Source: Eubacterium sp. (GTDB taxonomy: Bacteria; Bacillota; Clostridia; Lachnospirales; Lachnospiraceae). From it: 64,000 bases of DNA. Below, in pieces: positions 38,359 through 63,690 of this stretch. The notes under the pieces were generated by a model. It made no database searches, had not been told where the DNA came from, and was given only the letters and a program-made list of their open reading frames with translations. The translations under genes and the position numbers were made by a program. The DNA lies in contig JAFUDC010000138.1 in the NCBI GenBank assembly GCA_017459345.1, forward strand, positions 10,853-74,852. Direction: 5' to 3'. Position 1 is the first letter of the stretch. Each line of letters begins with the position of its first letter.

Positions 38359-38386
38359 AAAACGGGGGAATAATCCCCCGCTTTTT
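38357..38386. terminator. Bidirectional terminator between convergent genes
   Basis: CGGGGGA/TCCCCCG stem flanked by an A run and a T run. Confidence 0.75.
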
Positions 38387-38753: not shown

Positions 38754-38767
38754 GAAATCATATCCTC

Positions 38768-40042: not shown

Positions 40043-40063
40043 AATTATTCTTCCCCCTTTGCA

Positions 40064-41506: not shown

Positions 41507-41634
41507 AAACCCCACCTCCATAATAATGAGTTTGCAGCAGCGATTCTACAAATATGCCCATAAATAAGGTTTTGAATGGCTGCTTATTGTGAATGTTTCA
41601 GGTATTAAAGGAAATATGCCATTCCTACTTATAT

Positions 41635-41682
41635 ATCATAATATTTTTTATAAAAAAAGAAAATATAGAAAAATATTTCACT
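41635..41682 (-). promoter_or_regulatory. Operator (41665-41682) and -10 box (TATGAT) for the leftward dehydrogenase operon
   Basis: Minus strand reads AGTGAA-ATATTT-TTCTAT; TATGAT starts 25 nt after the site ends. Confidence 0.65.
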
Positions 41683-41760
41683 AAAAACGGCAGTCATTAT
41701 GTTAAATAATAGACAAAATAACCATAGTCAGATTGGGGTTATCCTGATTCTTTGGTTAAT

Positions 41761-41808
41761 ATTGAAAAAAATTTCTATATTGTGATGAGCTAAACATGTA
41801 GATATAAT
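41761..41808 (+). promoter_or_regulatory. Operator (41761-41778) and promoter for the rightward dehydrogenase-kinase operon
   Basis: ATTGAA-AAAAAT-TTCTAT, then TTGTGA(41780)-17 nt-TATAAT(41803). Confidence 0.7.
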
Positions 41809-41964
41809 ATTTATTAATAGGTCTTTGTGCACAAATATATTAGTTTGTTACATGGTTTAATATGTGAATTGTCTATAGTCGGGGCGCCCCCGGCATGGGA
41901 GTTTTTGTCAGATCAAAGAAGACTCTCTCCTGTATAGAGGATCACAGAGAAATGAGGATTTCTT

Positions 41965-43407
41965 ATGTATGATGTAATGATTATCGGAGGAGGAATCTCC
42001 GGATGTACCATAGCCAGAGAACTATCGCGTTACAAGGCCAATGTATGCCTGCTGGAGAAGGGGGACGATGTGGCGTCCGGCACCTCCAAGGTGAACGGGG
42101 GAGCATTTCATGCAGGATATGACCCCAAGCCCGGAACCATGATGGCCAGGATGAATGTCCGGGGTAATGAACTGGTTCATGAACTTGCTGATGTCCTGGA
42201 TTATCCGGCCCACTGGACAGGGGCCATGGTGGTATGTATTGACCCGGAGGAGAGATATAAGCTGGATACCCTCTATGAACAGGGAGTGGAGAACGGAGTG
42301 CCTGACCTCAGGATCCTGGAGAAGGATGAGGTCCTGGAGATGGAACCCAACCTGTCGCAGAATGTGGTAGCTGCCCTATATGCACCCACTGCCGGTTATA
42401 CCTGCCCCATGCAGTATACCATTGCATTTGCTGAGAGTGCTGCCATCAACGGAGTGGAGTTCAGGTTTGAGACAAAGGTAACCAACATCATCCGTAAAGA
42501 GGATCATTACATCCTCGAGACGACCAAGGGGAATTTCGAGACCAGGGCGGTGGTGAATGCTGCCGGTCTCTATGCCGATGAATTCCACAATATGATGAGC
42601 AGCGATAAGATACATATCACTCCCCGAAAGGGAGAGTACCTGCTCCTGGATAAGCCTTACGGTGAAACCTTTAAGGCAACCATCATGGTGCTGCCGGGTA
42701 AGATGGGCAAGGGTGTCCTCACGGCACCGACCATACACGGCAACCTCTATGTTGGGCCCACCTCCTATGATATCGAGGATAAGGAGGGAGTAAATACTAC
42801 CCGGGAGTACCTGGACAGCTTACTTCACGAGATGGAGCACCATCTGATCAATGAGGTTAAGCTTCCTGCCAGTAAGATTATCACTTCCTTTGCCGGTCTT
42901 CGTGCCCATGAAGATGGCCATGACTTTATCGTGAAGGAATTGCCGGAAGCACCGCTCTTCTTTGAGGCGGCTGGAATCGAATCCCCCGGTCTTACCAGCG
43001 CCCCGGCCATTGCCGAGTACCTGGTGGGCCTGATCAGCCAGAGGATGGAGCTTAGCGAAAAATCCGACTTTATTCCGGAACGGAAGAATGTAGTCAAGCT
43101 GGCAAAGATGACTATGGAAGAGCGCAATGCCCTGATTAAGGAGAAGCCGGAATTCGGCCAGATCATCTGCCGCTGTGAGATGATCACAGAGGGTGAGATC
43201 GTGGATGCCATCAACCGGCCGGTGGGTGCAACCTCCTTAGATGGAGTCAAGCGCCGGGTAAGAGCAGGCATGGGCAGATGCCAGGGCGGCTTCTGTACCC
43301 CCAAGGTGATGCAGATCCTTGCCAGGGAGCTTGGCAGAGATATGACAGAGATCACCAAGAAGGGTCATGGCTCTGAGATGCTTGTCGGGAAGATAAAGAT
43401 GAACTGA
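41965..43407 (+). CDS. GlpA/LhgO-like FAD dehydrogenase with BFD-like [2Fe-2S] domain, copy 2
   Basis: GGGISG, SGTSKVNGGAFH, GIESPGLT and CRCE...GRCQGGFC; colinear with copy 1 over its full length. Confidence 0.85.
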   Translation: MYDVMIIGGGISGCTIARELSRYKANVCLLEKGDDVASGTSKVNGGAFHAGYDPKPGTMMARMNVRGNELVHELADVLDYPAHWTGAMVVCIDPEERYKLDTLYEQGVENGVPDLRILEKDEVLEMEPNLSQNVVAALYAPTAGYTCPMQYTIAFAESAAINGVEFRFETKVTNIIRKEDHYILETTKGNFETRAVVNAAGLYADEFHNMMSSDKIHITPRKGEYLLLDKPYGETFKATIMVLPGKMGKGVLTAPTIHGNLYVGPTSYDIEDKEGVNTTREYLDSLLHEMEHHLINEVKLPASKIITSFAGLRAHEDGHDFIVKELPEAPLFFEAAGIESPGLTSAPAIAEYLVGLISQRMELSEKSDFIPERKNVVKLAKMTMEERNALIKEKPEFGQIICRCEMITEGEIVDAINRPVGATSLDGVKRRVRAGMGRCQGGFCTPKVMQILARELGRDMTEITKKGHGSEMLVGKIKMN

Positions 43408-43498
43408 AAAACACGGATAACCCCATATTCCTGTGTTTTTGTTATATATGCGGCCATAGCCGCCCGAAAACTCATAATACTAAGAGGAGGTATTCACT

Positions 43499-45052
43499 AT
43501 GGAAAAGAAACAGTATGTCTTAGGTGTTGACCTTGGTACCACAAGTGCAAAATCCGTTATCATGGACCTGCAGGGTAATGCAGTAGGTATCGGACAGCTG
43601 GACAATCCCCTGACCTATTACAAGAATGGATTTGCAGAGATTGACGGACCTCAGATGATTGAGAATATCTATGCGACAACCCGTATGGCCATCGAACAGT
43701 GGAATGGAGATCCTAAGGACATCATCGGTATCTCTTTCTGTATGTTCAGAAGTACCATGGTAATGCGTACGGCAGACGGCGGCTTTGCTGTTCCGATTTC
43801 TATCTGGCAGGATCTTCGAGGCGGCGAGATGCTTGACTGGGAAGCTGAGCAGATTCCGGAGAAGGAACTCTATGATAACTGCGGTATGCCCAACTATGCA
43901 GCCAACCCCTCCGCAAGATTGTTCTGGTATATGAAGAACAACCCGGAAGCATATGAGAAGACCACAGATATCCACACCATGCAGGGCTTCCTGACCAAGG
44001 CTTATGGTGCAGATGATTATTATGATGACCTGACCTGCTCACCATATATGCAGATGAACGGGCATGACTTCGAGTACAAGAAAGAGCTCTGTGATGTATT
44101 TGGCGTTGATATCAACAAGCTGGCTCCTCTTAAGAAGTCTCTTGAGATCATCGGACACGTTACCGAAGAAGTAGCAGCCAAGACCGGTCTTGCTGTTGGT
44201 ACTCCTCTGGTTATGGGTACCGGCGACCAGCAGTGTGGTACACTGGGTACAGGTGTTGTTGACTCCACAGTTGGATATACCTGCGGCGGTACCGCTGGTC
44301 TTTCCATCGTTAACTCTGATGATTTCATCCGTGACCCCAATGGAAAGTGCTACGTTCTGGGAACACCGGCAGGACAGTGGTGTATCGAGGGTCTGTCCAA
44401 CAATGCAGGCTCCGCTTACAAGTGGGTAAAACAGGTAATGTGTACATCTCTGGCTGTACAGGCTGCAGAGCAGGGAAGAGACATCTATGATCTCATGAGT
44501 GAACTGGCTGATTCCGCAGGTGTCGGTGCTCACGGCGTTATGTTCCTCAACTACTTATCCGGTGCAACCACACCGAATAACAATGTTAATGCCCGCGGCT
44601 GCTTCCTTGGTATGACCATGGCAACAGATAAGGCTGACTTTATCCGTGCTGCCCTTGAGGGTGTTGTATTTGACCTTAAGGATATGTTCGATGCCATCCT
44701 TGATGCCGGCGTTAAGGACTTTGACGTAGTTCGTACCACAGGCGGTCTTGCCAGAAGTGATGTCTTCAATCAGATTCAGGCAGACGTTTACAACAAGGCT
44801 GTTGAGACAGTTGCAGTAGAAGAAGGAACCGGTATCGGCTGTGGTATCATGGCTGCAGTAGGCGTAGGCGCTTATCCGGATCTGAAGACAGCTGCAGAGA
44901 ACATGGTTAAGGTTGTTAAGAGATATGAGCCGATTCCGGAGAACGTAGAGAAATATAAAGTGATCTACGATGCATGGAGACAGGCTTATAAGTCCATCAA
45001 CGAAGGCGGAACCTTCGATGATCTTGCCAAGATCCAGAAGATGGCTGAGTAA
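43499..45052 (+). CDS. FGGY-family carbohydrate/polyol kinase
   Basis: GVDLGTTSAK, GTGDQQ, FIRAALEG and GGLARSDVFNQIQAD. It lacks the diagnostic glycerol-kinase motifs, so it is not called glpK. Confidence 0.85.
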   Translation: MEKKQYVLGVDLGTTSAKSVIMDLQGNAVGIGQLDNPLTYYKNGFAEIDGPQMIENIYATTRMAIEQWNGDPKDIIGISFCMFRSTMVMRTADGGFAVPISIWQDLRGGEMLDWEAEQIPEKELYDNCGMPNYAANPSARLFWYMKNNPEAYEKTTDIHTMQGFLTKAYGADDYYDDLTCSPYMQMNGHDFEYKKELCDVFGVDINKLAPLKKSLEIIGHVTEEVAAKTGLAVGTPLVMGTGDQQCGTLGTGVVDSTVGYTCGGTAGLSIVNSDDFIRDPNGKCYVLGTPAGQWCIEGLSNNAGSAYKWVKQVMCTSLAVQAAEQGRDIYDLMSELADSAGVGAHGVMFLNYLSGATTPNNNVNARGCFLGMTMATDKADFIRAALEGVVFDLKDMFDAILDAGVKDFDVVRTTGGLARSDVFNQIQADVYNKAVETVAVEEGTGIGCGIMAAVGVGAYPDLKTAAENMVKVVKRYEPIPENVEKYKVIYDAWRQAYKSINEGGTFDDLAKIQKMAE

Positions 45053-45122
45053 TTGCCTTAGAAGATCCGAAATCGGATTGCAGGTTAAGTAAGTTCTCAT
45101 ACTTAATGTCATACATGTACGG

Positions 45123-45157
45123 GAATGCCCGCACCGCTTATTGCGGTGCGGGCATTC
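45123..45157 (+). terminator. Terminator hairpin after the kinase
   Basis: GAATGCCCGCACCGC/GCGGTGCGGGCATTC 15-bp stem. Confidence 0.7.
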
Positions 45158-45251
45158 TTAGTGTATAGTATATTTAGTCCAATTTGTTACTACGCAGAGC
45201 CATGCAGATTTTTGGACAATGTGCTTATATCAGCAAAAGGAGGATATTATC

Positions 45252-45899
45252 ATGTTAGATGCGATATTAAAATCAAGAAAACTCTTAGCTGACCAGCTGA
45301 TCCGCAAGATGGAAGCCCGTCAGTTTGAAGCCTGCTACGTTGAGACAGGGGCCGAAGCTTTCGAGAAGGTCTGTTCCTATTTTACTGATGGATGTACCAT
45401 CACCGCAGGCGGGTCTACCAGCTTAAAGCAGATCGGCCTGCTCCCCTATCTGGAAGGGGAAGGCGGAGCCAAATATAACTATATCGACAGAGGCAAGGCA
45501 AAAACAACCCTGGAAAAACGGGAAATTTTCTCCAAGGCTGCCCTGGCTGACTATTATCTCATGAGCACCAACGCTCTGACTTTAGATGGAGAGCTGGTCA
45601 ATGTGGACGGGGTCGGCAACCGGGTAGCTGCCCTCTGCTTCGGGCCGGAGAACGTAATTATCGTGGTCAGCCTCAATAAGGTGGCCAAGGATGTGAGGGA
45701 AGCCATGGACAGGGTCCGCAATCAGGCCGCCCCGCCCAATGCTCTTCGCTTAAACTGTGACACGCCATGTACTAAGACTGGCAGCTGCGGCAACTGCTTA
45801 AAGCCGGACTGCATCTGCGCAGACCTGCTGGTGACAAGATTCTCCAGGGTTCCCGGCAGAATTAAAGTGGTTCTGGTTGGAGAAGACCTGGGATTCTGA
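45252..45899 (+). CDS. LUD-domain (LutC/YkgG-like) protein
   Basis: GGSTSL, STNALTLDGELVNVDGVGNRVAA and a Cys-rich TPCTKTGSCGNC...CIC. Confidence 0.8.
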   Translation: MLDAILKSRKLLADQLIRKMEARQFEACYVETGAEAFEKVCSYFTDGCTITAGGSTSLKQIGLLPYLEGEGGAKYNYIDRGKAKTTLEKREIFSKAALADYYLMSTNALTLDGELVNVDGVGNRVAALCFGPENVIIVVSLNKVAKDVREAMDRVRNQAAPPNALRLNCDTPCTKTGSCGNCLKPDCICADLLVTRFSRVPGRIKVVLVGEDLGF

Positions 45900-45915
45900 T
45901 AGTATCCGGTAAGTA

Positions 45916-46542
45916 CTACAGGTCATCCTCGGAATAGAATAATTTATTCTCACAGATCATCTCGGTTTTTCCATCGATGCATTCGAAAATGACGGCGGAG
46001 CAGTTCTTGCCAAAGGTGGATTTCCAGAGCATATCGATGGGTCTGCCGGTCAGGTTCAGGATGAAGCATCGAATGAGGGTGGCGTGGGAGGATACCAGGA
46101 TGGTCTCATACTTTCCCTCCAGAGGGAGAATACGTTCCTTGTAGAAGGTATCTGCCCGGCCTAAAAGATGGGGATAAGACTCGCCGCCCTTGACAGGGCG
46201 ATAATGAGCCGGATCATTAAAGTATCTCTGATAACGGACAAAATGCGGATCATTCAGCGTCTTTCCGAAGTTTCTGCCGTTGTCCTTACCGAAGTCGATT
46301 TCCTTTAAGAGATCATCCTTGATGATCTCAACAGGCCTGTCCCGCCTCAGAATCTGTGCTGTTATGTAGGAGCGCTGCAGGGGACTGGAGAAGATGCAGT
46401 CAAAAGGAATATCCTTCATTCCCTCAGAGGCAAGCTCTGCCTGCCTGATGCCCAGAGCATTCAAGGGGATGTTGAGCTGACCCTGCAATTTCTTTTTTAC
46501 ATTCCAGTCAGTTTCTCCGTGGCGTACAAAGTATATTTTCAT
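45916..46542 (-). CDS. Histidine phosphatase family protein
   Basis: RHGETDWN, SSPLQRS and SHA; start placed at MKIYFVRHG after GGAG. Confidence 0.88.
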   Translation of the reverse strand: MKIYFVRHGETDWNVKKKLQGQLNIPLNALGIRQAELASEGMKDIPFDCIFSSPLQRSYITAQILRRDRPVEIIKDDLLKEIDFGKDNGRNFGKTLNDPHFVRYQRYFNDPAHYRPVKGGESYPHLLGRADTFYKERILPLEGKYETILVSSHATLIRCFILNLTGRPIDMLWKSTFGKNCSAVIFECIDGKTEMICENKLFYSEDDL

Positions 46543-46787
46543 TGGGGCTCCTTTCAGTAGTATATTTGACCAGGAAATGTTTTGTATGTCCTTATTATAC
46601 TTATTTTTATAATATAAGTCCAGCTTTGGCGCCGGACTGACGGGTTCTGTAACAGTATATTGTTTGTGCTGCATTCAGTTTGGGTCATTCAAAATAAGCT
46701 TGATGTTAATTATGTCAGATTCTACCATTATTAATAAACTTAATCACAAATTTGTCTCACTTAAAATATAATTGCTGGAGGTTATTT

Positions 46788-47882
46788 ATGAGCTACGTAT
46801 TTGTAAGTCCGGGTAAGTATATCCAGGGCAAGGGAATTCTTAAAGATATTGCAGAATACACGGCCCCGATTGGAAAGAAACCATTTATACTCTTTAGTGC
46901 AGGCGGCATGAAGCGCTTCGGGGATATGGTCCGAAAATCCTTTGCAGACCAGGGTATTGAACCTGTTATGGAGACCTTTGGGGGAGAGGTTACCAGGCAG
47001 GAGATTGACCGTCAGGCCCTGACTGCCGACAGTCATGGCTGTGATTATGTGATCGGAATCGGAGGGGGCAAGGTGACGGACACCGGTAAGTTTGTCGCCG
47101 TAAGATGTAAGCTGCCCACTGTTGTATGCCCGACGATTGCGGCAACGGATGCTCCGACCCCGGGAAGAGCTGTATTATACTCTGAAGAGGGAGTCTCCCT
47201 TAAGACTTATCAGCTGCCCAGGAATCCGGAGCTGGTTCTTGTGGATGCAGAGGTGATTGGAAAAGCTCCCGTAAGACTTCTGGTTTCCGGAATGGGAGAT
47301 GCCCTGGCAACCCGCTTTGAGACTGAAGCATGTCTCAGCACCAACTCGAAGAATCCGGCGGGCGGCTATACCACCGTGGCAGGAGCTTCCCTTGCCCGGG
47401 CCTGCTACAATACTCTGATAGAGTTTGGAGCCCAGGCAAAGAAGGATGCCATGAATGGCGATTGCAGTCTGGCTGTGGAGCGGATTGTTGAGGTCAATAC
47501 CCTACTTTCGGGCCTGGGTTTTGAGAGTGGCGGCCTGGCTTCTGCCCACGCCATCAACAAGGGTCTTACCCATGTCAAGGACTGTGATGCTTACTATCAT
47601 GGGGAGAAAGTGGCCTTCGGAACCTTATGTCAGTTGATCATGGAGGGAAAGGATGAGGAGCTGATAAAAGAAGTCTTTGATTTCTGCCACAGCGTGGGAC
47701 TACCCATCACTTTAAAGGAGATCGGGCTGACTCCTGATGACACGGACAAGCTGATGACGGCAGCAAAGGTAGCTGGAGACCCGGCAGGCCATACGAAAAA
47801 CGAGCCTATGAAGGTGACACCGGAGATGGTTTATGAGGCTATGCTGGAGGTCAACCGGAGAGGGGAGAAGTATTCGTTATGA
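46788..47882 (+). CDS. gldA: Glycerol dehydrogenase (NAD, metal-dependent) or close polyol dehydrogenase
   Basis: SPGKYIQG, GGGKVTD, PTIAATDAP, GMGDALATRFE and AHAI...HGEKVAFG. Confidence 0.8.
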   Translation: MSYVFVSPGKYIQGKGILKDIAEYTAPIGKKPFILFSAGGMKRFGDMVRKSFADQGIEPVMETFGGEVTRQEIDRQALTADSHGCDYVIGIGGGKVTDTGKFVAVRCKLPTVVCPTIAATDAPTPGRAVLYSEEGVSLKTYQLPRNPELVLVDAEVIGKAPVRLLVSGMGDALATRFETEACLSTNSKNPAGGYTTVAGASLARACYNTLIEFGAQAKKDAMNGDCSLAVERIVEVNTLLSGLGFESGGLASAHAINKGLTHVKDCDAYYHGEKVAFGTLCQLIMEGKDEELIKEVFDFCHSVGLPITLKEIGLTPDDTDKLMTAAKVAGDPAGHTKNEPMKVTPEMVYEAMLEVNRRGEKYSL

Positions 47883-47889
47883 CGGCTTT

Positions 47890-47916
47890 AGGGGGCTGAG
47901 AAATCAGCCCCCTTTT
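47890..47916. terminator. Terminator between convergent gldA and pgm
   Basis: AGGGGGCTGA/TCAGCCCCCT stem plus a T run. Confidence 0.7.
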
Positions 47917-47934
47917 CTATTGATAAAATATATA

Positions 47935-49617
47935 CTAAGCAAACAGAGGAGCCAGTGCAGCGGCCAGCTCATCCTTCTGGGCCTGAGCCTCATCAAGATC
48001 CTTACCCAGTGTGGTAAAGTAGGTCTTGATCTTGGGCTCTGTTCCGGATGGACGAACGATTACGGATGCGCCGCCTTCCAGGTTATACCTTAATACGTTG
48101 GAAGCGGGAAGTCCGGTAGCCTGGCTGTCCTTGTAGTCGATGGAACCGGTTACCTTATAAGGACCGAATGCAGCGGGCGGGTCATTGCGGAGAGAGTCCA
48201 TGATGCCGGCCATCTTGTCCATGCCGGTCAGTCCCGGGAACTCGAAGCTGTCTACCTTGTTAAGGTAGCGGCCGTACTCTGTGTAGATCTCCTCTAAGCG
48301 CTGCTTGATGGAGCTGCCGATGCTTCTGTAGTAGGCGGCCATCTCACAGATCAGCATGGAGCCAACGATGGCGTCCTTATCCCTTACATATGGTCCTGCC
48401 AGGTATCCGTAGCTCTCCTCAAAGCCGAAGATGAAGCGTTCAACCTCACCATCTGCCTCAAGGCCGGCAATCTGATCGCCGATCCACTTAAAGCCGGTTA
48501 AGACATTGCGCATCTCTACGCCATAGTGGTCTGCAATGGCATCAGCCAGGGGAGTGGATACGATGGATTTTACTGCAACGGGCTTCTCGGGAAGAGTACC
48601 CTTTTCTATACGGCCTGCACAGATGTAATCCAGCAGGAGGGCGCCCATCTCATTGCCGCTTACCAGCTCATAGGAACCATCCTCACACTTCATGGCAATA
48701 CCTACCCGGTCTGCGTCAGGGTCTGTTGCAAGCATGAGGTCTGCACCAGTCTCTTTGGCACATTCCAGACCCAGCTTTAAGGCGTCGAAAATCTCCGGAT
48801 TGGGATAGGAGCATGTGGTAAAGTAGCCGTTTGGATATTCCTGATCGGCAACGATGGTGATATCCTCGATGCCCATATGTTTTAATACGGTGGTTACCGG
48901 AACCAGGCCGGTACCGTTTAAGGGGCTGTAAACCAGTTGAAGACCTGCAGTCTTAGCAAGACCCGGGCGAACCTGGCAGGCTTCGATGGCGGCATAGAGG
49001 CCTTCCTTACACTCATCATCCACATACTTGATGATACCTTCGTTCACTGCCTTGGCAAAGGACATGAATTTGGCTCCGGTGAGTACATCTGTCTTCTGGA
49101 TCTCATCATAGACGATGGCGGCGGCAGCATCTGTCATCTGGCATCCATCCGGGCCATAAGCCTTGTAGCCGTTATACTTAGCCGGATTGTGGGATGCAGT
49201 TACCATGATGCCGGCGTTGCAGTTGTAGTAGCGGGTGGCAAAGGATAAGGCCGGAACAGGCATCAGGGCATCGTAGATCCGGACATTGATCCCGTTGGCG
49301 GCAAGAACGCCGGCAGCGGTCTTGGCAAATACATCACTCTTTAAGCGGCTGTCATAGGCGATGGCCACGGTCTGGCTGCCCCCCTGGGTCTTTACCCAGT
49401 TGGCAAGTCCCTGGGTAGCCTGGCGTACCACATAGATGTTCATCCGGTTGGTACCTGCCCCCAGCACACCTCTAAGACCTGCGGTTCCGAACTTCAATGA
49501 AACAGCAAAGCGATCTGCAATCTCATCATCATTGCCTTCAATCTTCATCAGCTCCGGCTTTAGGTCACAGTCCTCAAGATCTGCTGCAAGCCAGCGTTTG
49601 TATTCATCCTGGTACAT
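47935..49617 (-). CDS. pgm: Phosphoglucomutase/phosphomannomutase
   Basis: FGTAGLRG, TASHNP, DPDADR, FEES and RPSGTEPK. Confidence 0.92.
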   Translation of the reverse strand: MYQDEYKRWLAADLEDCDLKPELMKIEGNDDEIADRFAVSLKFGTAGLRGVLGAGTNRMNIYVVRQATQGLANWVKTQGGSQTVAIAYDSRLKSDVFAKTAAGVLAANGINVRIYDALMPVPALSFATRYYNCNAGIMVTASHNPAKYNGYKAYGPDGCQMTDAAAAIVYDEIQKTDVLTGAKFMSFAKAVNEGIIKYVDDECKEGLYAAIEACQVRPGLAKTAGLQLVYSPLNGTGLVPVTTVLKHMGIEDITIVADQEYPNGYFTTCSYPNPEIFDALKLGLECAKETGADLMLATDPDADRVGIAMKCEDGSYELVSGNEMGALLLDYICAGRIEKGTLPEKPVAVKSIVSTPLADAIADHYGVEMRNVLTGFKWIGDQIAGLEADGEVERFIFGFEESYGYLAGPYVRDKDAIVGSMLICEMAAYYRSIGSSIKQRLEEIYTEYGRYLNKVDSFEFPGLTGMDKMAGIMDSLRNDPPAAFGPYKVTGSIDYKDSQATGLPASNVLRYNLEGGASVIVRPSGTEPKIKTYFTTLGKDLDEAQAQKDELAAALAPLFA

Positions 49618-49721
49618 CTTGTTAGTCTCCTTTCGTATAGGGTATAAATTAGTTAATTGCGAAACTCTGTCACGACTTTAAAATGTTCCTGCGTCTCGCC
49701 GATGCCTGGACATTTTCTTCT

Positions 49722-51137
49722 TTATCTGCTTACATCAAAGATAGTAATAGCCTTTTCGCCATCCTTAAAAGCATATACTTTATCATCAATACAGGTAATA
49801 TCCTTATATTCATATTTCAGAAGCTGTTTGCCGGTGATGGTATCAAAGAGCCCATAGGAATCGGTTTTGTCATCATAAGCTTTGAGCAGTCCAAAGCCGA
49901 TTGGGCCGGCCTGGTCAAACTTTAAAGTATAATTCTTTTTATCGAAGACATAATAGTTTCTGCCTGAGTTGGCATCTAACTCGTAGGCACACATATTAGT
50001 GCTGTCAAAATTTCCCTTAAGACCCTGAGCCCAGAGGGTGCCCTTTATGTCAAAAACATCATAGACTGTATCTTCTCCTTCTTTTCGGCGGCCTTCAAAA
50101 TAGCCGCTGCCCAGCCAGGAGATGGAGGAATAGATACATTTGCTGATCTCAGTGCCGTCAGGCTTGATCAGGCCGCGTATATAGTCATCTCCGCCGGCAT
50201 CGTAATATACAAGAACATCTTCGGGGATATCTCCTTCGCGTGCAGCGCTTGCAGATACTCCTTCGAATCCCCCTCTCTTCTGTGCCGTAAAGAGTTCTTT
50301 ACCGGTTTTATCCATCAGAACCGGAAGATCAGAATCTGTAGTGTAGTATAGATAATCCGATCCCTGGGAAACACCGCGGAGAGATTTATCCGTGGAAAAG
50401 AGCTTCTTTAAGCTGCTGTCCAGAATATCGGTCGTGCTTCCGCTGCTGACAGAGTAAAAACCTCCCTTAATGCTGTAGGAAGAGGCATCATCCACAAGCA
50501 CCTTTCCGTCCTTGTCATAGATTTTGTAATTGCCATTATCATCTCTTACATACAATGTGTCACCAAGGGCATCAATTTTTCCTTTGGGACTGGTGATCTC
50601 TATACCTGGAACCTCTTTTCCCGTGATGACATCGTAGACGGTCATCTTTCCGGTATAGAGAGTATCATCTTTATCCGGTGATATTGAAAAAGACTTATCG
50701 GTCCCATATATCATGGCTTCTTCCTTGTTTTTGGTTTCTTTTAAAGCCACAGTAGATGTCCAGAAGCGGTCATTTAAACGAGTGTATATAGCCTGGGCAT
50801 AGGGGATAAGAATCTTTCCCTCCTTAGAAACCAATGCAGTCTCAGTCAAAGGATTTCCCTTTCTTTTCAGCATATAGAAACCATGGGCTTCCACTGTGAC
50901 ATCCTGCGCGCTGATATCCTTTATCTCTTTTCCCTCCGGTGTATAGAGAATAAAGTTATCCCCGGACTTCTTATAAATGTAATTCGATATCCTGATTTCA
51001 CCCTTCTCATCCTGGATCGTGCCTGATTCTTTCAGAACCGCAGGACTTGCTGCCTGCAGCCGGGCCGGAAGAAAGGACACGGCCATGAGGACGGCCAGAC
51101 TCATGGAAACAAGCTGTCTTAGCAGTTTCAATCTCAT
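49722..51137 (-). CDS. Secreted beta-rich protein with WG-like repeats, function unknown
   Basis: Signal peptide ending in ARLQA and repeated G-x-x-D/K-x-x-G-K units. Confidence 0.55.
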   Translation of the reverse strand: MRLKLLRQLVSMSLAVLMAVSFLPARLQAASPAVLKESGTIQDEKGEIRISNYIYKKSGDNFILYTPEGKEIKDISAQDVTVEAHGFYMLKRKGNPLTETALVSKEGKILIPYAQAIYTRLNDRFWTSTVALKETKNKEEAMIYGTDKSFSISPDKDDTLYTGKMTVYDVITGKEVPGIEITSPKGKIDALGDTLYVRDDNGNYKIYDKDGKVLVDDASSYSIKGGFYSVSSGSTTDILDSSLKKLFSTDKSLRGVSQGSDYLYYTTDSDLPVLMDKTGKELFTAQKRGGFEGVSASAAREGDIPEDVLVYYDAGGDDYIRGLIKPDGTEISKCIYSSISWLGSGYFEGRRKEGEDTVYDVFDIKGTLWAQGLKGNFDSTNMCAYELDANSGRNYYVFDKKNYTLKFDQAGPIGFGLLKAYDDKTDSYGLFDTITGKQLLKYEYKDITCIDDKVYAFKDGEKAITIFDVSR

Positions 51138-51212
51138 ACTTTTCCCCCTTTTTGATATTGGTCACATCTTGCTGCTGCCATACTGCCATTAACAAAAAGA
51201 GTATAGCAATAA

Positions 51213-51239
51213 TCCCCTGTAATATGATATCACAGGGGA
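51213..51239 (-). terminator. Hairpin downstream of fba
   Basis: TCCCCTGT/ACAGGGGA stem. Confidence 0.5.
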
Positions 51240-51270
51240 CTCATGTCAGTCAAAAGATATTCGCCTTATT

Positions 51271-52140
51271 TCAGTCAGCCTTGCCGATAGAACCGAATAC
51301 TTCCATCTTTTCTTTTACTTTAGCCTTGATGGCTTCGAAACCAGGAGCTAAAAGCTTACGCGGGTCATAGCCCTTACCCTGCTGATCCTTACCTTCCTCG
51401 ATGTACTTGCGGGTAGCTTCGGCAAATACCAGCTGGCACTCTGTGTTAACGTTGATCTTGGAAACACCAAGGTTGATGGCCTTCTTAACCATGTCATCCG
51501 GAAGTCCTGTGCCGCCGTGCAGTACCAGAGGCATATCTCCGGTCAGCTGCTGGATGGCGTCTAATACATCAAACTGCAGTCCCTTCCAGTTTGCCGGATA
51601 CTTGCCGTGGATATTGCCGATACCTGCTGCCAGCATGGTGATTCCCAGGTCAGCAATCTTCTTGCACTCCTGAGGATCTGCGCACTCGCCCATACCGATG
51701 ACGCCATCTTCTTCTCCGCCGATGGAACCAACTTCTGCCTCGATGGACATACCCTTCTCTTCGCAGATAGCTACTAACTCTTTGGTCTTCTCCACATTCT
51801 CTTCAAATGGAAGGGAGGAGCCGTCAAACATGATGCTGGAGAAACCAGCCTCGATACAAGCCTTGGCTCCTGCATAGGAACCGTGGTCAAGATGAAGAGC
51901 AACAGGAACGGTAATCTTAAGCTCCTCGAGCATACCGTTTACCATGCCCACAACAGTCTTATAGCCGGCCATGTATTTGCCTGCGCCCTCGGAAACAGCA
52001 AGCATAACAGGCGATCTCTGCTCTTCAGCAGTTAAAAGGATAGCCTTTGTCCACTCCAGGTTGTTGATATTGAAGGCACCTACTGCGTAATGTCCTGCTT
52101 TTGCCTTCTGTAACATTTCTTTTGCTGATACTAAAGCCAT
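51271..52140 (-). CDS. fba: Class II fructose-1,6-bisphosphate aldolase
   Basis: AFNINNLEW, ALHLDHG, GIGNIHG, LHGGTG and KINVNT. Confidence 0.95.
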   Translation of the reverse strand: MALVSAKEMLQKAKAGHYAVGAFNINNLEWTKAILLTAEEQRSPVMLAVSEGAGKYMAGYKTVVGMVNGMLEELKITVPVALHLDHGSYAGAKACIEAGFSSIMFDGSSLPFEENVEKTKELVAICEEKGMSIEAEVGSIGGEEDGVIGMGECADPQECKKIADLGITMLAAGIGNIHGKYPANWKGLQFDVLDAIQQLTGDMPLVLHGGTGLPDDMVKKAINLGVSKINVNTECQLVFAEATRKYIEEGKDQQGKGYDPRKLLAPGFEAIKAKVKEKMEVFGSIGKAD

Positions 52141-52309
52141 AATAATTGTACCTCCTAAATAAATATTATTGAAATTATTATACCCTCTTTTTACATAAAA
52201 ATAAAGGGATAAAATTATGATTCTTAGTGATTCTTTTCTGTGTGCTGTTCAGAAGCCGCCCGCAATCCCGGAAGGCTCCGGCTGTCTGAGCCGGGTATGG
52301 TAATCCGAC

Positions 52310-53056
52310 TTACCGGAACTCCAGGCCGAACTTCTCGATCAGCCGGGCTCTCTCAGCCATATAGACCTTGTTCTGTTTGTCCTGAACCAGCTTCTGGCCA
52401 ATCTGCTCTGCCACATTCTCAAATGGGGCGGTACCTGCCGGTGTTAATTCATCTACACGGATCAGGTGCCAGCCGAACTGGGTTTTCACCGGCCCCATGA
52501 TCTGGCCGATTTCCGGGTCGTTAAAGACTGCCTCGTCGAACTCTTTTACCATCTGGCCCCGGCCGAAGCTGCCCAGGTCACCGCCCTTGGCAGAAGAAGG
52601 GCAGGTGGATTTCTCTTTGGCCACATCCTCAAAGCTTTTTCCGTCCTTGATCTCCTCCAGGGCAGCCAAAGATGCCTCTTTTGTATCGGTCAGGATGTGA
52701 TGGGCCTTCGCCTGGCCGCCGGTCTGGAACTGGGAAGGATTCTGCTCATAATAGCTCCGACACTCCTCTAAGGAAGCAGTGATGTCCTTGACTGCCTGGG
52801 TCAGGGCATACTGGCTGAGCAGGTCCCTTCTGGCCCCTGCAAGAATCTCCTGGAATTCCTCCGTGGTATCATATCCCTTTTCCTCACCCAGCTTCTCAAA
52901 CAGAAAATAGTTGGCATACTGGATAAGAGCCTGCTGCCGTCCCTCAGCTGTCTTAACATATTGCTGCTGCTGAGCCGGGATTCTGGTCAGGAATTCGTTA
53001 AACTCTTTTTCCGTGATTTCGTGGCCTGCGGCCACGGCGATGATTTTATCTGCCAT
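52310..53056 (-). CDS. Parvulin-type peptidyl-prolyl isomerase
   Basis: HHIL, STCPSSAKGGDLGSFGRGQMVKEF and TQFGWHLI. Confidence 0.9.
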   Translation of the reverse strand: MADKIIAVAAGHEITEKEFNEFLTRIPAQQQQYVKTAEGRQQALIQYANYFLFEKLGEEKGYDTTEEFQEILAGARRDLLSQYALTQAVKDITASLEECRSYYEQNPSQFQTGGQAKAHHILTDTKEASLAALEEIKDGKSFEDVAKEKSTCPSSAKGGDLGSFGRGQMVKEFDEAVFNDPEIGQIMGPVKTQFGWHLIRVDELTPAGTAPFENVAEQIGQKLVQDKQNKVYMAERARLIEKFGLEFR

Positions 53057-53161
53057 GTTTTTGTTGTCCTCCTTGAAAATATATCAGATGGGAGATACAA
53101 TCTTCCATCTGCCTTTGCATCTTACTATTCCACCTGCAAAGGAAAATGTCAATGATATTTT

Positions 53162-53208
53162 ACTGAAATTAATTTCAATATTTTTTTTGCCATAAAATGA
53201 GTTACAAT
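53162..53208 (+). promoter_or_regulatory. Operator (53162-53179) and -10 box upstream of SorC regulator 1
   Basis: ACTGAA-ATTAAT-TTCAAT; TACAAT starts 24 nt after the site ends. Confidence 0.65.
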
Positions 53209-53297
53209 AAAAGGTATGGATTATATAGAAAGATGCAGATACTGAGAAATGAATGTAAAGATATAGTTACTGAGATAAGAGGAGGTTATGATAAAGG

Positions 53298-54269
53298 ATG
53301 AAGGGCGAAGTATACAGTCAGTCAACCTGTATCGTCAGTGCTGTGGCCTACCAATACTATGTATTAGGAAAGAAGCGCACGGAAATTGCTGAGAGTGTGG
53401 GCCTGTCCCCTGCCACATTGTCCAGGCTGCTGCGCAGGGCCAGGGAAGAAGGAATCATCGAGTTCCACATCACGGAGCCATATTTAAGCTGCTGCCAGAT
53501 GGAAGAGGAGCTTGCAGACCAGTTCGGCTTAAAATGCGCTATCGTGGTGCCTGTGCCTGAACAGTACAGGGAGGATAAGGAAAGAGTGAAGAAGCTGGTT
53601 GCCCTGGAGGGTGCCAGATACATACAGAGGATCATCAATGACGGGGATATCATCGGACTGAACTGGGGAGGGACTATGTATCACCTGATCCAGTACTTAA
53701 ATCCCTGCAGAAAGGTTCCGGCCAGCATCATCACCATGCATGGCAGTATCGAGCACAGCGTCAAGAAGTTCCAGGCCAAGTCCCTGGTCCGCCGGGCGGC
53801 CATGTCCTTCGGAGGGTCTACCCTGGTTACCGCTGCTCCGGGTCTCTCCACCTCCCCTGAGGAGCATGAGAAGGTTCTTTCCAGCCCGGAATATCAGAAG
53901 CTGCAGAAAATGTACAGCAAGATTGATATCTCTGTCAGCGGGGTCGGCTCCATCTTTCCAGAGTTTGATTCCCCCCTGGTTACCTCCGATTTCCTGAACA
54001 AGGAAGAGCTCGATGAGGTGATGGCCCAGAAACCGGCCTGTGATTTTCTGCTCCGCTTTTTTAATGAACAGGGGGAGGAGTGTCATACATCAATATCAGA
54101 TCGAACAGTTTCGATTCCTGTTGATGTCTATAAGAAGATTCCCACCAGGATCGTGGTGGCCTCCGGAAAGGCCAAGGCTCATGCCATCATGTCCCTCTTA
54201 AATGGTGACCTGGTGGATGTGCTGATTATAGATAAAGACCTGGCAGATGCCGTGGTTGACCTGACCTGA
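53298..54269 (+). CDS. SorC/DeoR(Bacillus)-family sugar-binding transcriptional regulator 1
   Basis: N-terminal HTH YQYY...EIAESVGLSPATLSRLLRRAREEGII, plus IGLNWGGT, GVGS and a C-terminal VLIID. Confidence 0.88.
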   Translation: MKGEVYSQSTCIVSAVAYQYYVLGKKRTEIAESVGLSPATLSRLLRRAREEGIIEFHITEPYLSCCQMEEELADQFGLKCAIVVPVPEQYREDKERVKKLVALEGARYIQRIINDGDIIGLNWGGTMYHLIQYLNPCRKVPASIITMHGSIEHSVKKFQAKSLVRRAAMSFGGSTLVTAAPGLSTSPEEHEKVLSSPEYQKLQKMYSKIDISVSGVGSIFPEFDSPLVTSDFLNKEELDEVMAQKPACDFLLRFFNEQGEECHTSISDRTVSIPVDVYKKIPTRIVVASGKAKAHAIMSLLNGDLVDVLIIDKDLADAVVDLT

Positions 54270-54299
54270 GAAGAATCTTTAAGATGCCGTGGTTTTTTT

Positions 54300-54347
54300 A
54301 GTGAAATAATTTTCTATATTTTCTTTTTCGATTTCTGAGTTTATAAT
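54300..54347 (+). promoter_or_regulatory. Operator (54300-54317) and -10 box upstream of the RuBisCO-like gene
   Basis: AGTGAA-ATAATT-TTCTAT; TATAAT at 54342 is 25 nt after the site; the -35 position (TTTTCT) is poor. Confidence 0.7.
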
Positions 54348-54423
54348 GGCATCATAAAGAAAATAACCTCTCATCGCAGAGGTGGAAACCCGATAAAGTG
54401 CAACAAATCACAGGAGGGAAATT

Positions 54424-55746
54424 ATGTTTGTAGATCCTATTGCAGTTCAGTACCCGGAAAGTCTTCAGAAAGACCATTTTGTCATTGCAACTTATTATTG
54501 TGCAACACCCCTTGACACCAACGCTTTAAAGTTTGCAGTAGCTCTTGGTATCGAGCAGAGCTGCGGTACCTGGGTTAAGGTTCCCGGTGAGACAGAGGAA
54601 GTTCGTGAGAGAAGTATCGCACGAGTTGTTGGTATCTATGAGACACCTACCTATTCCGTACGCATTCCTGAGGATGTGAAGAAGAGACACTTCATCATCC
54701 GTATCGCCTTCCCGGCATGGAACTTCGGACCATCCTTCTCCATGATGCTTTCCACCGTAATCGGCAACATCTCCAGTTCAGGAGAGGTTAAGCTTCTTGA
54801 CCTTGAGTTCCCGGAGACCTATCTTAAGAACTTCCAGGGTCCCAAGTTTGGTGTTCAGGGCCTTCGTGATCTCTTAGGCGTACAGGACAGACCGCTTCTT
54901 AACAACATGATTAAGCCATGTACCGGTCTTGATCCTCAGGCAACCGCAAAGTTCGCATATGATGCAGCTTTAGGCGGAATCGATGTCATCAAGGATGATG
55001 AGCTTGTTGCCAATCCTCCATACTGCCCGCTGGAAGACCGTGTTAAGGCTGTTATGCCGGCAGTGAAGGAAGCAGACAAGATCAAAGGCGAGAAGACCTT
55101 ATATGCATTCAACATCACAGACAGAACAGAGAACCTGAAGAAGAACGCCATGACCGTTATCGAGAACGGCGGTAATGCACTTCTGCTTAACTACAACAGT
55201 ATCGGACTGGATGCCTGCCGCATGATCGCAGAGGATCCGGATATCAATGTTCCGCTGCTGGCACATTCCGATTACACAGGTGCTGTTTATGAGTCTCCAT
55301 GGTCCGGCGTAAGCCTGAACCTGATCGGAGCTATCTTCCCGAGAATGGCTGGTATGGATATGGTTATCGCCCTTTCTCCATACGGTAAGTTCCCGATGAT
55401 GGAAGACGCTTTCATCTATGGCGGATATAAGATGCTTCAGCCATTCGGCCACATTAAGCCAATCATGCCGATGCCGGGCGGTGGAACCACACAGGGCCAC
55501 ATCCAGGATATCATCGACAAGTTCGGTACTGACGTCATGATCGCAGCCGGCGGAGCTGTTCACGGACATCCCATGGGATCCACCGCCGGTGCCAAGGCAT
55601 TCCGCCAGGGTATCGACGCTGTTATGGAGGGTCAGGATTTAAGAGCTGCTGCTGAGTCCGGCAAGTATCCGGAACTTAAGGCTGCTATCGATGCATGGGG
55701 CATCTATGGCGAAGACCAGGGTAAGATCTTCGATCTTAAGGGATGA
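54424..55746 (+). CDS. RuBisCO-like protein (form IV RLP)
   Basis: EQSCGTW, IGN, IKP, GGIDVIKDDE (carbamylation motif), YGKF, PGGG and AAGGAVHGHP. Several RuBP-specific residues are substituted; no small subunit or PRK is present. Confidence 0.9.
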   Translation: MFVDPIAVQYPESLQKDHFVIATYYCATPLDTNALKFAVALGIEQSCGTWVKVPGETEEVRERSIARVVGIYETPTYSVRIPEDVKKRHFIIRIAFPAWNFGPSFSMMLSTVIGNISSSGEVKLLDLEFPETYLKNFQGPKFGVQGLRDLLGVQDRPLLNNMIKPCTGLDPQATAKFAYDAALGGIDVIKDDELVANPPYCPLEDRVKAVMPAVKEADKIKGEKTLYAFNITDRTENLKKNAMTVIENGGNALLLNYNSIGLDACRMIAEDPDINVPLLAHSDYTGAVYESPWSGVSLNLIGAIFPRMAGMDMVIALSPYGKFPMMEDAFIYGGYKMLQPFGHIKPIMPMPGGGTTQGHIQDIIDKFGTDVMIAAGGAVHGHPMGSTAGAKAFRQGIDAVMEGQDLRAAAESGKYPELKAAIDAWGIYGEDQGKIFDLKG

Positions 55747-55826
55747 TCTTAAGTCTGATTTGAGAATTTTTGATTAGCCTGTTTGTATAACTTATCATGA
55801 CATCATAGATTTTAGCTGACAGTATG

Positions 55827-55869
55827 AACAGCTGCAGGGTATCCGTTAGGATGCCTTGCAGCTGTTTTT
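55827..55869 (+). terminator. Intrinsic terminator after the RLP gene
   Basis: AACAGCTGCA...TGCAGCTGTT stem plus a T run. Confidence 0.75.
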
Positions 55870-55894
55870 CGTCTCTGAGGATAAAAGGGACAGA

Positions 55895-55923
55895 TTGACG
55901 TACTATTCAGAATCCTATATAAT
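55895..55923 (+). promoter_or_regulatory. Near-consensus promoter of SorC regulator 2
   Basis: TTGACG-17 nt-TATAAT; no copy of the 18-bp operator is adjacent. Confidence 0.7.
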
Positions 55924-55982
55924 TATGAGTAAAGTTTTCGCTCGTAGATGGGGTTTAATATATAACAGGGGGGCAGGATTCT

Positions 55983-56948
55983 ATGGATAAGGTTGTATAC
56001 AGCCAGTCAGTCTGTCTGATGAATGAGATACTGGAGATGTATTATCTAAGCGGCATGACCCAGCAGAAGATTGCGGCCAGGCTGAATCTGTCCAAGCCCA
56101 CTGTCTCCAGGCTTCTTAAGAGTGCAGAGAAGAACAATATGCTGTCTGTTTCCATCAGAGAGCCTTATCTGGACTGTCTGAAGCTGCAGAAGGAGTTTTC
56201 TGCCATCTATCCCGGGATTAAGATCTATGTCGTGCCTGTTCTTAAGGATTATGAGAAGAATCATAAGATGACGGTTGCCATTGAGGGAGCCAGGCATGTG
56301 CAGAGGATGCTTCAGGATAACCAGACCCTGGGTGTCGCCTGGGGCGGTACCATCCATTATATGATTCAGACCCTGAACCCCTGCCAGAAGAAGAATATCT
56401 CTGTTGTGACTCTGCACGGGGAGATTTCCAGATGCGGGGATGAGTATGATGTGGACGAGCTGGTAAAGCGGGCCGCCATGTCCCTCGGAGGCAAGCAGTA
56501 CATTTTCGGTCAGTCGGGTTATTTTCCCTCGGAAGAAGCCCTGAGGGATTACTATGAAGATGTCAATTATAAGAAACTTCAGAGGATATTTGAGAAGATC
56601 GATCTGTCTGTCATCGGTGCGGGATGCTGGGGAAGGGTCATGACATCGCCTCTGACACCACCCATCACTGACTACATTTCTCCGGAGGAGTTTAAGGAGA
56701 TTCAGGAGAAGGATGTGGCGGCAGACATCATGCTGCATTATGTCAACAGGCAGGGGGAGGAAATCGACAGTGAGATCAGGAAGAGAACCCTGTCCATTGA
56801 CCTGGATATCTACAGGAAGATTCCCTGCAAGATAGCCCTCCTGTCCGGAGTGGAGAAGGTGAAGGCTCTGCAGGCTGTCATCAATGGCGGTTATGCCGAT
56901 GTGATCTACTGTGATTATGAGCTGGCGAAAAAATTGTATTATATGTAA
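55983..56948 (+). CDS. SorC-family sugar-binding transcriptional regulator 2
   Basis: YYLSGMTQQKIAARLNLSKPTVSRLL and LGVAWGGT; colinear with regulator 1 (shared VYSQSxC and NPCxK). Confidence 0.88.
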   Translation: MDKVVYSQSVCLMNEILEMYYLSGMTQQKIAARLNLSKPTVSRLLKSAEKNNMLSVSIREPYLDCLKLQKEFSAIYPGIKIYVVPVLKDYEKNHKMTVAIEGARHVQRMLQDNQTLGVAWGGTIHYMIQTLNPCQKKNISVVTLHGEISRCGDEYDVDELVKRAAMSLGGKQYIFGQSGYFPSEEALRDYYEDVNYKKLQRIFEKIDLSVIGAGCWGRVMTSPLTPPITDYISPEEFKEIQEKDVAADIMLHYVNRQGEEIDSEIRKRTLSIDLDIYRKIPCKIALLSGVEKVKALQAVINGGYADVIYCDYELAKKLYYM

Positions 56949-56961
56949 GTGTTATTCGAGG

Positions 56962-56986
56962 ACCCGGTTTTTTCCGGGTCTTTTCA
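56962..56986 (+). terminator. Intrinsic terminator after SorC regulator 2
   Basis: GACCCGG/CCGGGTC plus TTTT. Confidence 0.7.
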
Positions 56987-57264
56987 TATTAGCTCTACCT
57001 GATTATTGCGGGAAAAAATTAAAAAGAGAGTATGCTCTCCGTAAAAAGAAGTTTGCATTGTCAGTGTGGGAAGAGTTGGTTTTTGAAGTTTCATAAGAAA
57101 TAAAAAATGGTATCATATATAAGACTTTCTTCGTATAAAAAAATAATCCGCGTAAGCATTACTTAATATAATCCAGGATGGATATCCCCCGGGACAGCCG
57201 AATTTCTTGTGCAAATGTTACAATTTTAACAATATATTTTCTTTTAAAAGCCGCAATTTATCCT

Positions 57265-57312
57265 ATTGAAATTTATTTCACTCTGTGCATAAATATATCT
57301 TCAAGTTATAAT
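57265..57312 (+). promoter_or_regulatory. Operator (57265-57282) and -10 box upstream of the cupin-dehydrogenase-kinase genes
   Basis: ATTGAA-ATTTAT-TTCACT; TATAAT at 57307 is 25 nt after the site. Confidence 0.7.
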
Positions 57313-57346: not shown

Positions 57347-57682
57347 GTGAAAATCTGGGATAGAAAGATTTCTGAATTGAATATGGACCAGTCAAAGCAG
57401 GAACTATTATCGGCGGAGGGAGGTTACACGATCTCCCTGATATGCTTCGACAGGGGTCAGATAGAAAGAAGGCATGTTCATCGTATTATCAATGAAGTCT
57501 TTTTTGTACTTGGCGGCAGAATAGATATCATTGTGGATGACTGCAGGTACACTTTGGAAAGCGGCCAGATGGTTTATCTGGAGGCCGGAGATATCCATTC
57601 CCTGGAGAATGTTTACCAGGAGGAGGCCCGGCTGCTGCAGATCAAAACCAGGCTGGAAATTGAAGATTATACAGAATTATAG
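57347..57682 (+). CDS. Small cupin-domain protein
   Basis: GTG start after GAGG; HVHRIINEVFFVLGG and GDIHSLEN match cupin metal motifs 1 and 2. Confidence 0.75.
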   Translation: MKIWDRKISELNMDQSKQELLSAEGGYTISLICFDRGQIERRHVHRIINEVFFVLGGRIDIIVDDCRYTLESGQMVYLEAGDIHSLENVYQEEARLLQIKTRLEIEDYTEL

Positions 57683-57763
57683 CTGTGATTATCTGTAACT
57701 GATAACGGTACAGACTTTGAAATCACTTAGTGATTATCTATGATGAAAGGGGAGGCTGATGAT

Positions 57764-59068: not shown

Positions 59069-59206
59069 GACTTCACAAGTCCCTGATACTGCATAGATAA
59101 GATTAAACTTGCCATACTCTCTTCTTTTAAGAGGGAACAGGTTAATTCAATCAGATTCTGATGTATGCAGTTTAACATATACATTTTATATTAAAGGAGG
59201 TACATT

Positions 59207-63558: not shown

Positions 63559-63690
63559 ATGTTTTTCCTCTGTAGATTTATTTATAATATGATAATATCA
63601 CAATACGAGAAAGATTTAAACCAACATCATTAAGAAATCTACAATTAAATACTATATGAAATTGCACGTGTGGTCTTACCGTCCGCTCAT

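Follow-up and report, generated by a model that had tools for sequence, protein, structure and literature searches.

A 20-bp palindrome next to five predicted promoters of a RuBisCO-like protein gene cluster is a probable SorC-family operator

Five palindromic sites and the genes behind them

The DNA analyzed here (hereafter the window) is a 64-kb stretch of a Eubacterium sp. genome from the family Lachnospiraceae (contig JAFUDC010000138.1) that carries a gene for a RuBisCO-like protein (RLP), genes for two SorC-family regulators, and operons encoding GlpA-like dehydrogenases and FGGY kinases. Five copies of a palindromic sequence, which we refer to as candidate operators O1 to O5, stand upstream of genes in this set. 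The original prediction had described them as 18-mers at a fixed distance from -10 boxes. The sequences and coordinates of all five were confirmed and all five are intergenic, but the conserved unit extends one base further on each side, to 20 bp. The consensus across genomes is TATTGAAA-W4-TTTCAATA. The scores given below are in bits under a cross-genome weight matrix, which was built from 28 distinct 20-mers from other genomes and contains no window sequence.

O1 (TAGTGAAATATTTTTCTATA in the minus-strand reading, 41664-41683, 23.2 bits) lies upstream of a minus-strand operon (operon A, 38385-41521, annotated with Pfam and NCBIfam) encoding a GlpA-like flavin adenine dinucleotide (FAD) dehydrogenase with a BFD [2Fe-2S] domain (GlpA1, 40064-41521), a Pyr_redox_2 oxidoreductase (38768-40042), and a DUF1667 protein (38385-38753). 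O2 (TATTGAAAAAAATTTCTATA, 41760-41779, 27.7 bits), centered 96 bp from O1 or about nine helical turns away, precedes operon B (41965-45899), which encodes a second GlpA-like dehydrogenase that is 64% identical to GlpA1 (GlpA2, 41965-43407), an FGGY kinase (FGGY1, 43499-45052), and a LUD-domain protein (45219-45899). O2 to O5 and the genes that they precede are all on the plus strand, as is sorC2 with its promoter.

O3 (TACTGAAATTAATTTCAATA, 53161-53180, 25.3 bits) stands upstream of sorC1 (53298-54269), which encodes a SorC-family regulator with a helix-turn-helix (HTH) and a PF04198 sugar-binding domain, and O4 (TAGTGAAATAATTTTCTATA, 54299-54318, 24.0 bits) stands upstream of the RLP gene (54424-55746). 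O5 (TATTGAAATTTATTTCACTC, 57264-57283, 22.8 bits) precedes operon E (57347-60712), whose products are a cupin (57347-57682), a glycerol-1-phosphate-dehydrogenase-like enzyme of the Fe-ADH_2 family (57740-59068), and a XylB-type FGGY kinase (59207-60712; 528 bits against a XylB cut-off of 380). Between the RLP gene and O5 lies sorC2 (55983-56948), which encodes a paralogous SorC-family regulator 38% identical to SorC1. Its promoter is near-consensus and sigma-70-like (TTGACG-17-TATAAT, 55895-55923), and it has neither an operator nor a matrix match. From this arrangement, sorC2 looks constitutive and sorC1 looks autoregulated.

The RLP itself is a form IV, MtnW/YkrW-like protein that scores below every NCBIfam equivalog cut-off, including those for MtnW (335.7 bits against 409) and for 2,3-diketo-5-methylthiopentyl-1-phosphate (DK-MTP-1-P) enolase (288.5 against 513.6). 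Its closest structure is 2oek, it keeps the KDDE motif, and its genomic context is not that of methionine salvage. A hairpin followed by a T-run lies 3' of the gene (approximately 55829-55872). A literature search on this RLP gene cluster or its regulation found nothing relevant.

The gene set is interrupted in the window by about 7 kb (45.9-53.1 kb) that encodes a histidine phosphatase, a gldA-like enzyme, a phosphoglucomutase, a WG-repeat protein, a fructose-bisphosphate aldolase, and a peptidyl-prolyl isomerase, and that contains no operators. A third FGGY kinase gene, at 26384-27901, is also without an upstream operator in the window; relatives of this kinase (36-40% identity) are found inside the RLP clusters of three other genomes (loci L007, L019, and L024, described below), next to Fe-ADH_2 genes.

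A palindrome at a fixed distance from predicted -10 boxes

The core TGAA-W6-TTC matches the window five times, each time within its 7,973 nt of intergenic DNA, whereas 2,000 dinucleotide shuffles of that intergenic DNA gave a mean of 0.16 matches and a maximum of 3. The looser pattern TGAA-N6-TTC was not enriched on its own (15 matches in the window against 11.4 expected); the A/T spacer and the flanks therefore hold part of the signal. A matrix scan had been suggested as a check on the sites. Run across these 64 kb of the genome, it singled out exactly the five operators, with no AT-rich background matches near their scores: the five sites came out on top at 22.8-27.7 bits, the next position scored 12.8 bits, and shuffled windows reached at most 14.8 bits. 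According to the matrix counts, the two arms form a perfect inverted repeat with invariant G/C positions, and the four central positions are A or T in 28 of 28 reference sites and 5 of 5 window sites.

A candidate sixth site at 57360-57377 (ATAGAAAGATTTCTGAAT), which scored 12.6 bits with a matrix trained on the window, was rejected, as no more than 2 nt separate its half-sites and it falls outside the top 14 positions of the cross-genome matrix. Separately, an identical intergenic 21-mer, TTTATGACTGATTTTCCTTTA, occurs twice near the end of the window (63690-63710 and 63859-63879, 169 bp apart).

Each operator is followed by a predicted -10 box at nearly the same place. The gaps between the 18-mers and the hexamers are 24, 24, 23, 24, and 24 nt for O1 to O5, which bears out the fixed distance originally described. 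The boxes are TATGAT for the glpA1 operon (41635-41640, minus strand), TATAAT for the glpA2 operon (41803-41808), TACAAT for sorC1 (53203-53208), TATAAT for the RLP gene (54342-54347), and TATAAT for the cupin operon (57307-57312). Of the intergenic positions in the window, 1% carry a TAnnnT hexamer that departs from TATAAT in no more than one base, and the chance, calculated post hoc, that all five sites would have one at a gap of 23-24 nt is about 3e-9. If the -10 box is taken as -12 to -7, the operators are predicted to span about -55 to -36, with the 20-mer ending 0-1 nt before the predicted -35 hexamer.

The same prediction had called most of the -35 positions poor. This description holds for four of the five window promoters by a 4-of-6 criterion, but not for the promoter that abuts O2 (TTGTGA-17-TATAAT, 41780-41808), and promoters in other genomes mostly have a partial -35 (TTG or TTT). 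None of the five has a TG-extended -10 box.

The glpA2 operon also has a 5' leader of about 155 nt (41815-41965) that is predicted to be structured (minimum free energy -45 kcal/mol, z-score -3.2) and includes a GC hairpin at approximately 41878-41894. An Rfam scan of 37-64 kb, this leader included, detected no riboswitch or leader families; the leader may be an attenuator or a protein-binding leader.

Related loci in other genomes and the candidate regulators

Related loci (denoted L with a number) were collected around relatives of the RLP, one genome per species, with crude longest-open-reading-frame gene calls and annotation by homology to the window proteins. In the RLP clade with at least 59% identity, 33 of 50 loci have the strict motif no more than 250 bp upstream of the RLP gene or of the adjacent SorC1 ortholog. 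Its density is 41 matches in 26.6 kb of upstream DNA compared to 8 in 87 kb of other intergenic DNA, and several of those 8 stand before GlpA-like or FGGY genes. Most of the remaining loci have near-consensus copies, including copies ahead of the RLP gene in Acidobacteriota and Actinomycetota, such as TATTGCAAGTTCTTTCAATA in two Acidobacteriota and TATTGAAACTTCTTTCCATA in a metagenome-assembled genome of the Pseudonocardiaceae. A site at the position of O4, ahead of the RLP gene, is thereby retained in most loci with an RLP ortholog.

Not only the palindrome but also its position is retained. At the same distance from a -10 box it precedes RLP, SorC-regulator, GlpA-like, and FGGY-kinase genes in many Bacillota, and a TAnnnT hexamer lies 22-23 nt past the 20-mer in 48 of 73 operator-gene pairs (background 1-7 per offset), a set that includes TACnAT boxes in Syntrophomonas. 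Across 53 non-redundant promoters, the DNA between operator and -10 box is unconserved except for a TTG or TTT right after the palindrome, which we read as the start of the -35 hexamer at 17-bp spacing.

The idea that these genes form a regulon is thus borne out in other genomes, where orthologs of these genes have the palindrome ahead of them and the SorC1 ortholog is found along with it. It had further been proposed that gene order alone would not reveal this link. That claim fails, as SorC1, RLP, GlpA, PyrRedox, DUF1667, and FGGY genes are contiguous in six loci (L007, L016, L019, L024, L037, and L038), and the GlpA/Pyr_redox_2/DUF1667 trio stands after the RLP gene in L007, L016, L019, L037, and L038. 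Only in this window is the set split by unrelated genes.

Some loci contain more than one operator. Tandem operators 20-22 bp apart are present in L042-L046 (around 8760-8850), upstream of SorC1 or RLP genes, with further pairs in L047 (9855 and 9877) and L007 (1391 and 1421, 30 bp apart). Caproiciproducens genomes have two RLP copies, each with a near-identical operator-promoter (L016 at 9900 and 15915; L019 at 4060 and 9901), and at L024 4112 there is an orphan operator-promoter, possibly a remnant, with no called RLP gene downstream. In Syntrophomonas-type loci (L020, 9511-12491), the genes that come after the RLP gene are PEP_hydrolase-like, UPF0261, and PEP_hydrolase-like; they replace the GlpA/FGGY set and are a second, unexplained gene partnership of the RLP. 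The window itself encodes, at 31410-32597, a fusion of a PEP_hydrolase-like domain with an AraC HTH.

Which protein binds the palindrome? Among the 50 loci of the clade with at least 59% RLP identity, 38 have a SorC1 ortholog beside the RLP gene and 39 have an operator; 35 have both, 3 have SorC alone, and 4 have the operator alone, counts that are phylogenetically non-independent. In an RLP clade of about 50% identity, there were no operators in 22 loci (313 kb), and only 1 of the 22 had a SorC-like gene. Both window regulators match the Pfam Sugar-bind domain (E 7e-54 for SorC1, 7e-40 for SorC2) and have an N-terminal HTH resembling sigma-70 region 4, and for both, the best Protein Data Bank match, over the full length, is Bacillus subtilis DeoR (8r7y; E 8e-32 and 5e-25). 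SorC1 orthologs, SorC2, and DeoR have in common a recognition helix of the form xxTVSRLL with a G-contacting arginine; the helix reads ATLSRLL in SorC1, PTVSRLL (within SKPTVSRLL) in SorC2, and xTVSRLL/I in about 40 orthologs. DeoR R34 is not kept, being Pro in SorC1 and Lys in SorC2. With 184.6 bits (SorC1) and 153.2 bits (SorC2) against an equivalog cut-off of 420 for the NCBIfam DeoR model NF053881, we classify the two proteins as members of the family and not as DeoR orthologs.

SorC2 has few relatives, with 47-84% identity in a protein search and contig look-ups, and a metagenome scan with SorC2 found none. In the three contexts retrieved for its orthologs (L079, L080, and L081), the gene lies between an RLP gene and a kinase/Fe-ADH_2/HAD operon, and this operon likewise has the operator ahead of it, with unchanged spacing to a TATAAT box, suggesting that both paralogs may use the same operator. 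A possible distinction between SorC1-type and SorC2-type operators was set aside: at spacer position 4, G tends to be present in sites after SorC2 orthologs, and the last arm of these sites tends to be degenerate, but a set of four is too small. On sequence grounds, we conclude that the sites are very probably SorC-family operators and infer that SorC1 is the prime candidate to bind them, possibly together with SorC2.

Repression by a SorC protein and its alternatives

The closest characterized system is DeoR. Its operator at dra-nupC-pdp is ATTGAACAAAATTTCAATTACCAATTTACATATGTTCAA at -60 to -21, and an 18-bp palindrome, ATTGAACAAAATTTCAAT, at -60 to -43, has been co-crystallized with the protein, whose R39 contacts G4 and T14 of this sequence (PMC11229326). 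DeoR is a repressor with an operator upstream of and over the promoter, and its binding needs a second half-operator between -35 and -10 (TTACA...TTCAA) (PMC11229326). The original prediction had noted a resemblance to the DeoR operator, and correctly so, since ATTGAACAAAATTTCAAT is published (PMC11229326) and both local regulators are SorC-family proteins with the DeoR recognition helix. Like the DeoR operator, the palindrome is a TTGAA-N6-TTCAA inverted repeat with an A/T-rich spacer, predicted here to lie upstream of the -35, and like DeoR (PDB 8r7y, 7bhy), the candidate regulators combine an N-terminal HTH, including the PTVSRLL-type helix with the arginine (R39 in DeoR) that reads the G of TTGAA, with a PF04198 phosphosugar-binding domain and are encoded beside their presumed targets. 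Unlike in DeoR, the palindrome spans 20 bp with fewer departures from symmetry and is located about 6 bp nearer the promoter (24 versus approximately 30 nt to the -10 box), and there are five promoters rather than one, serving an RLP, GlpA-like dehydrogenases, and FGGY kinases rather than nucleoside catabolism.

In our best reading, to which we assign a probability of roughly 0.62, the sites are operators of SorC1, and possibly SorC2, placed next to the -35 and most likely repressive, with repression relieved by a phosphosugar. A SorC dimer would read the 20-bp palindrome through its DeoR-type helix-turn-helix, the family being known to form a dimer of dimers, and the bound protein would hinder contacts of sigma region 4 and of the C-terminal domain of the alpha subunit (alpha-CTD), thereby repressing the promoters of glpA1-pyrRedox-DUF1667, glpA2-FGGY1-LUD, sorC1, the RLP gene, and cupin-FeADH2-xylB-like. 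Release would come about when the C-terminal domain binds a phosphorylated intermediate, a sugar or a polyol, that the kinases or dehydrogenases of the regulon produce. The binder, the sign of regulation, the effector, and the positions of the transcription start sites (TSSs) are all presumed here. That the sites act as repressor sites is somewhat more likely than not. Repression is favored because DeoR, the characterized relative, is a repressor, because sorC1 carries its own operator and so would control itself, because some regulated promoters have a usable -35 (TTGTGA at O2, and TTGATA next to the operator in the Peptococcia loci L043 and L044), and because in several taxa a further operator is present 20-22 bp upstream.

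Several observations weigh against this reading. The DeoR-like right half-operator between -35 and -10 is not conserved in the 53 non-redundant promoters, and in the window a TTCAA-type right repeat is found only at O5 (TTCAA, 23 bp past the first TTC) and O4 (TTCT, 21 bp past). The distance between operator and promoter is invariant across unrelated promoters and phyla, which is more typical of activator-dependent promoters, and the -35/-10 scan found weak -35 hexamers at four of the five window promoters. SorC1 and SorC2 are indistinguishable by sequence as binders, and the operator is consistently found downstream of SorC2 orthologs; the co-occurrence of SorC genes and operators, as noted, was counted over phylogenetically non-independent loci. 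Finally, a search of sequencing runs for this region matched four gut-metagenome DNA runs and no RNA runs. As for the absent half-operator, the longer, near-perfect palindrome may suffice for binding without one; alternatively, distant operators such as O1 and O2 may be bridged.

A serious though less probable alternative is that the same protein binds the same operator as an activator or in a dual role, recruiting RNA polymerase together with its effector from about -45, beside a weak -35. The operator-to--10 distance, fixed in 48 of 73 pairs across taxa with unconserved DNA in between, is as expected for such a promoter, as are the four window promoters that fail the -35 criterion and the absence of a TG-extended -10 box at all five. 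Klebsiella pneumoniae SorC has been reported to act as an effector-dependent activator. Against activation, a partial -35 does exist, as TTG or TTT mostly follows the palindrome, and good -35 hexamers are present at O2, L043, and L044. Repression is the mode of action of DeoR, which among characterized proteins with this DNA-binding domain is the closest relative (PMC11229326). In addition, classical class II sites are centered at -41.5, but here the operator center falls at about -45.5.

It is also conceivable, though improbable, that another transcription factor, for instance of the LacI/CcpA type, binds the sites and the SorC genes are bystanders. TGAAA and TTTCA half-sites around a 4-bp center resemble cre- and Cra-type operators, and TGAAA-N4-TTTCA has the half-sites and spacing of an idealized cre. 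However, LacI-family operators need a central CG, and the central four bases here are always A/T, unlike in a cre. No LacI-family gene was noted by Pfam beside the RLP and SorC genes of the window or in the few related-locus genes scanned. The motif instead tracks the SorC1 ortholog across phyla, with no operators in the 22 loci of the clade of about 50% identity, and its geometry and half-site match the DeoR-DNA crystal structure.

Still less probable is a reading in which the element belongs to the promoter itself, for instance as an A/T-rich UP element or as an upstream element for an alternative sigma factor. In its favor are the A/T-rich composition of the element, its location at about -55 to -36, the region in which UP elements function, and its constant spacing from the -10 box. 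Yet the arms form a perfect inverted repeat whose G/C positions do not vary, which indicates a dimeric protein, the element is restricted to genes linked to one regulator, and there are tandem and divergent copies without a second promoter. The two roles can coexist, and an unoccupied operator might double as an UP element. Chance similarity among A/T-rich intergenic regions, suggested by the lack of enrichment of TGAA-N6-TTC alone, is refuted by the excess of sites once the A/T spacer is included, by the other-genome matrix that singles out the same five sites, and by the retention of the motif 5' of orthologs in dozens of genomes.

Returning to repression by a SorC protein, the tandem operators invite comparison with B. 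subtilis CggR, which regulates gapA and binds as a tetramer (a dimer of dimers) to two half-operators about two helical turns apart. Unlike the regulators described here, CggR binds DNA through a winged-helix domain, and its operator, the G/C-rich direct repeat CGGGAC...TGTC at +32 to +77 downstream of the TSS, shows no sequence relationship to the palindrome (PMC11229326). CggR nevertheless belongs to the same family, has the same C-terminal domain, and has a half-operator spacing that matches the tandems of L042-L046. The tandem layout resembles the two-half-operator arrangement of CggR and DeoR, and 20-22 bp is the spacing expected for a SorC tetramer.

Other SorC-family regulators, including Brucella EryD, K. 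pneumoniae SorC, and Escherichia coli LsrR, are likewise encoded beside a kinase gene and respond to a pathway intermediate; EryD, of the erythritol operon, is encoded beside an FGGY kinase and a GlpD-like FAD dehydrogenase that acts on a polyol phosphate. We liken these systems to ours by gene context; their gene content differs, and to our knowledge none of them controls an RLP. With respect to the effector, K141 of DeoR (chain index 146), which we take to be its effector-binding lysine, aligns with a His in both SorC1 and SorC2, and their effector is likely to be different from that of DeoR and non-covalent.

The system works like DeoR/dra in a different SorC branch: it is a standard comparative-genomics regulon, and its mechanism is not new. 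In place of the bipartite DeoR operator, a single extended palindrome seems to serve in this branch. The sites also carry the structurally defined DeoR code, TTGAA-N6-TTCAA, into a far broader part of the SorC family. A more ambitious picture, which we offer as tentative, is a cross-phylum regulon for an uncharacterized RLP pathway acting on a phosphosugar or polyol phosphate, with SorC1 and the RLP as its core, joined either by the GlpA-like dehydrogenase/DUF1667/FGGY set or by the PEP-hydrolase-like/UPF0261 set; in it, the lineage of the window would have two SorC paralogs, one autoregulated and one constitutive, that combine two signals at one shared operator, which they might bind as activators placed precisely against the -35. 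The operator provides a testable regulatory link from an RLP of uncharacterized function to defined kinases and dehydrogenases, one that holds in gut and rumen Lachnospiraceae and many other anaerobes. Its main value is as a handle on the uncharacterized RLP pathway, whose conservation extends from Lachnospiraceae to Syntrophomonas, Acetobacterium, Acidobacteriota, and Actinomycetota. SorC1 is expected to respond to an intermediate of the RLP pathway, so the identity of its effector would be a short route to the substrate of the RLP.

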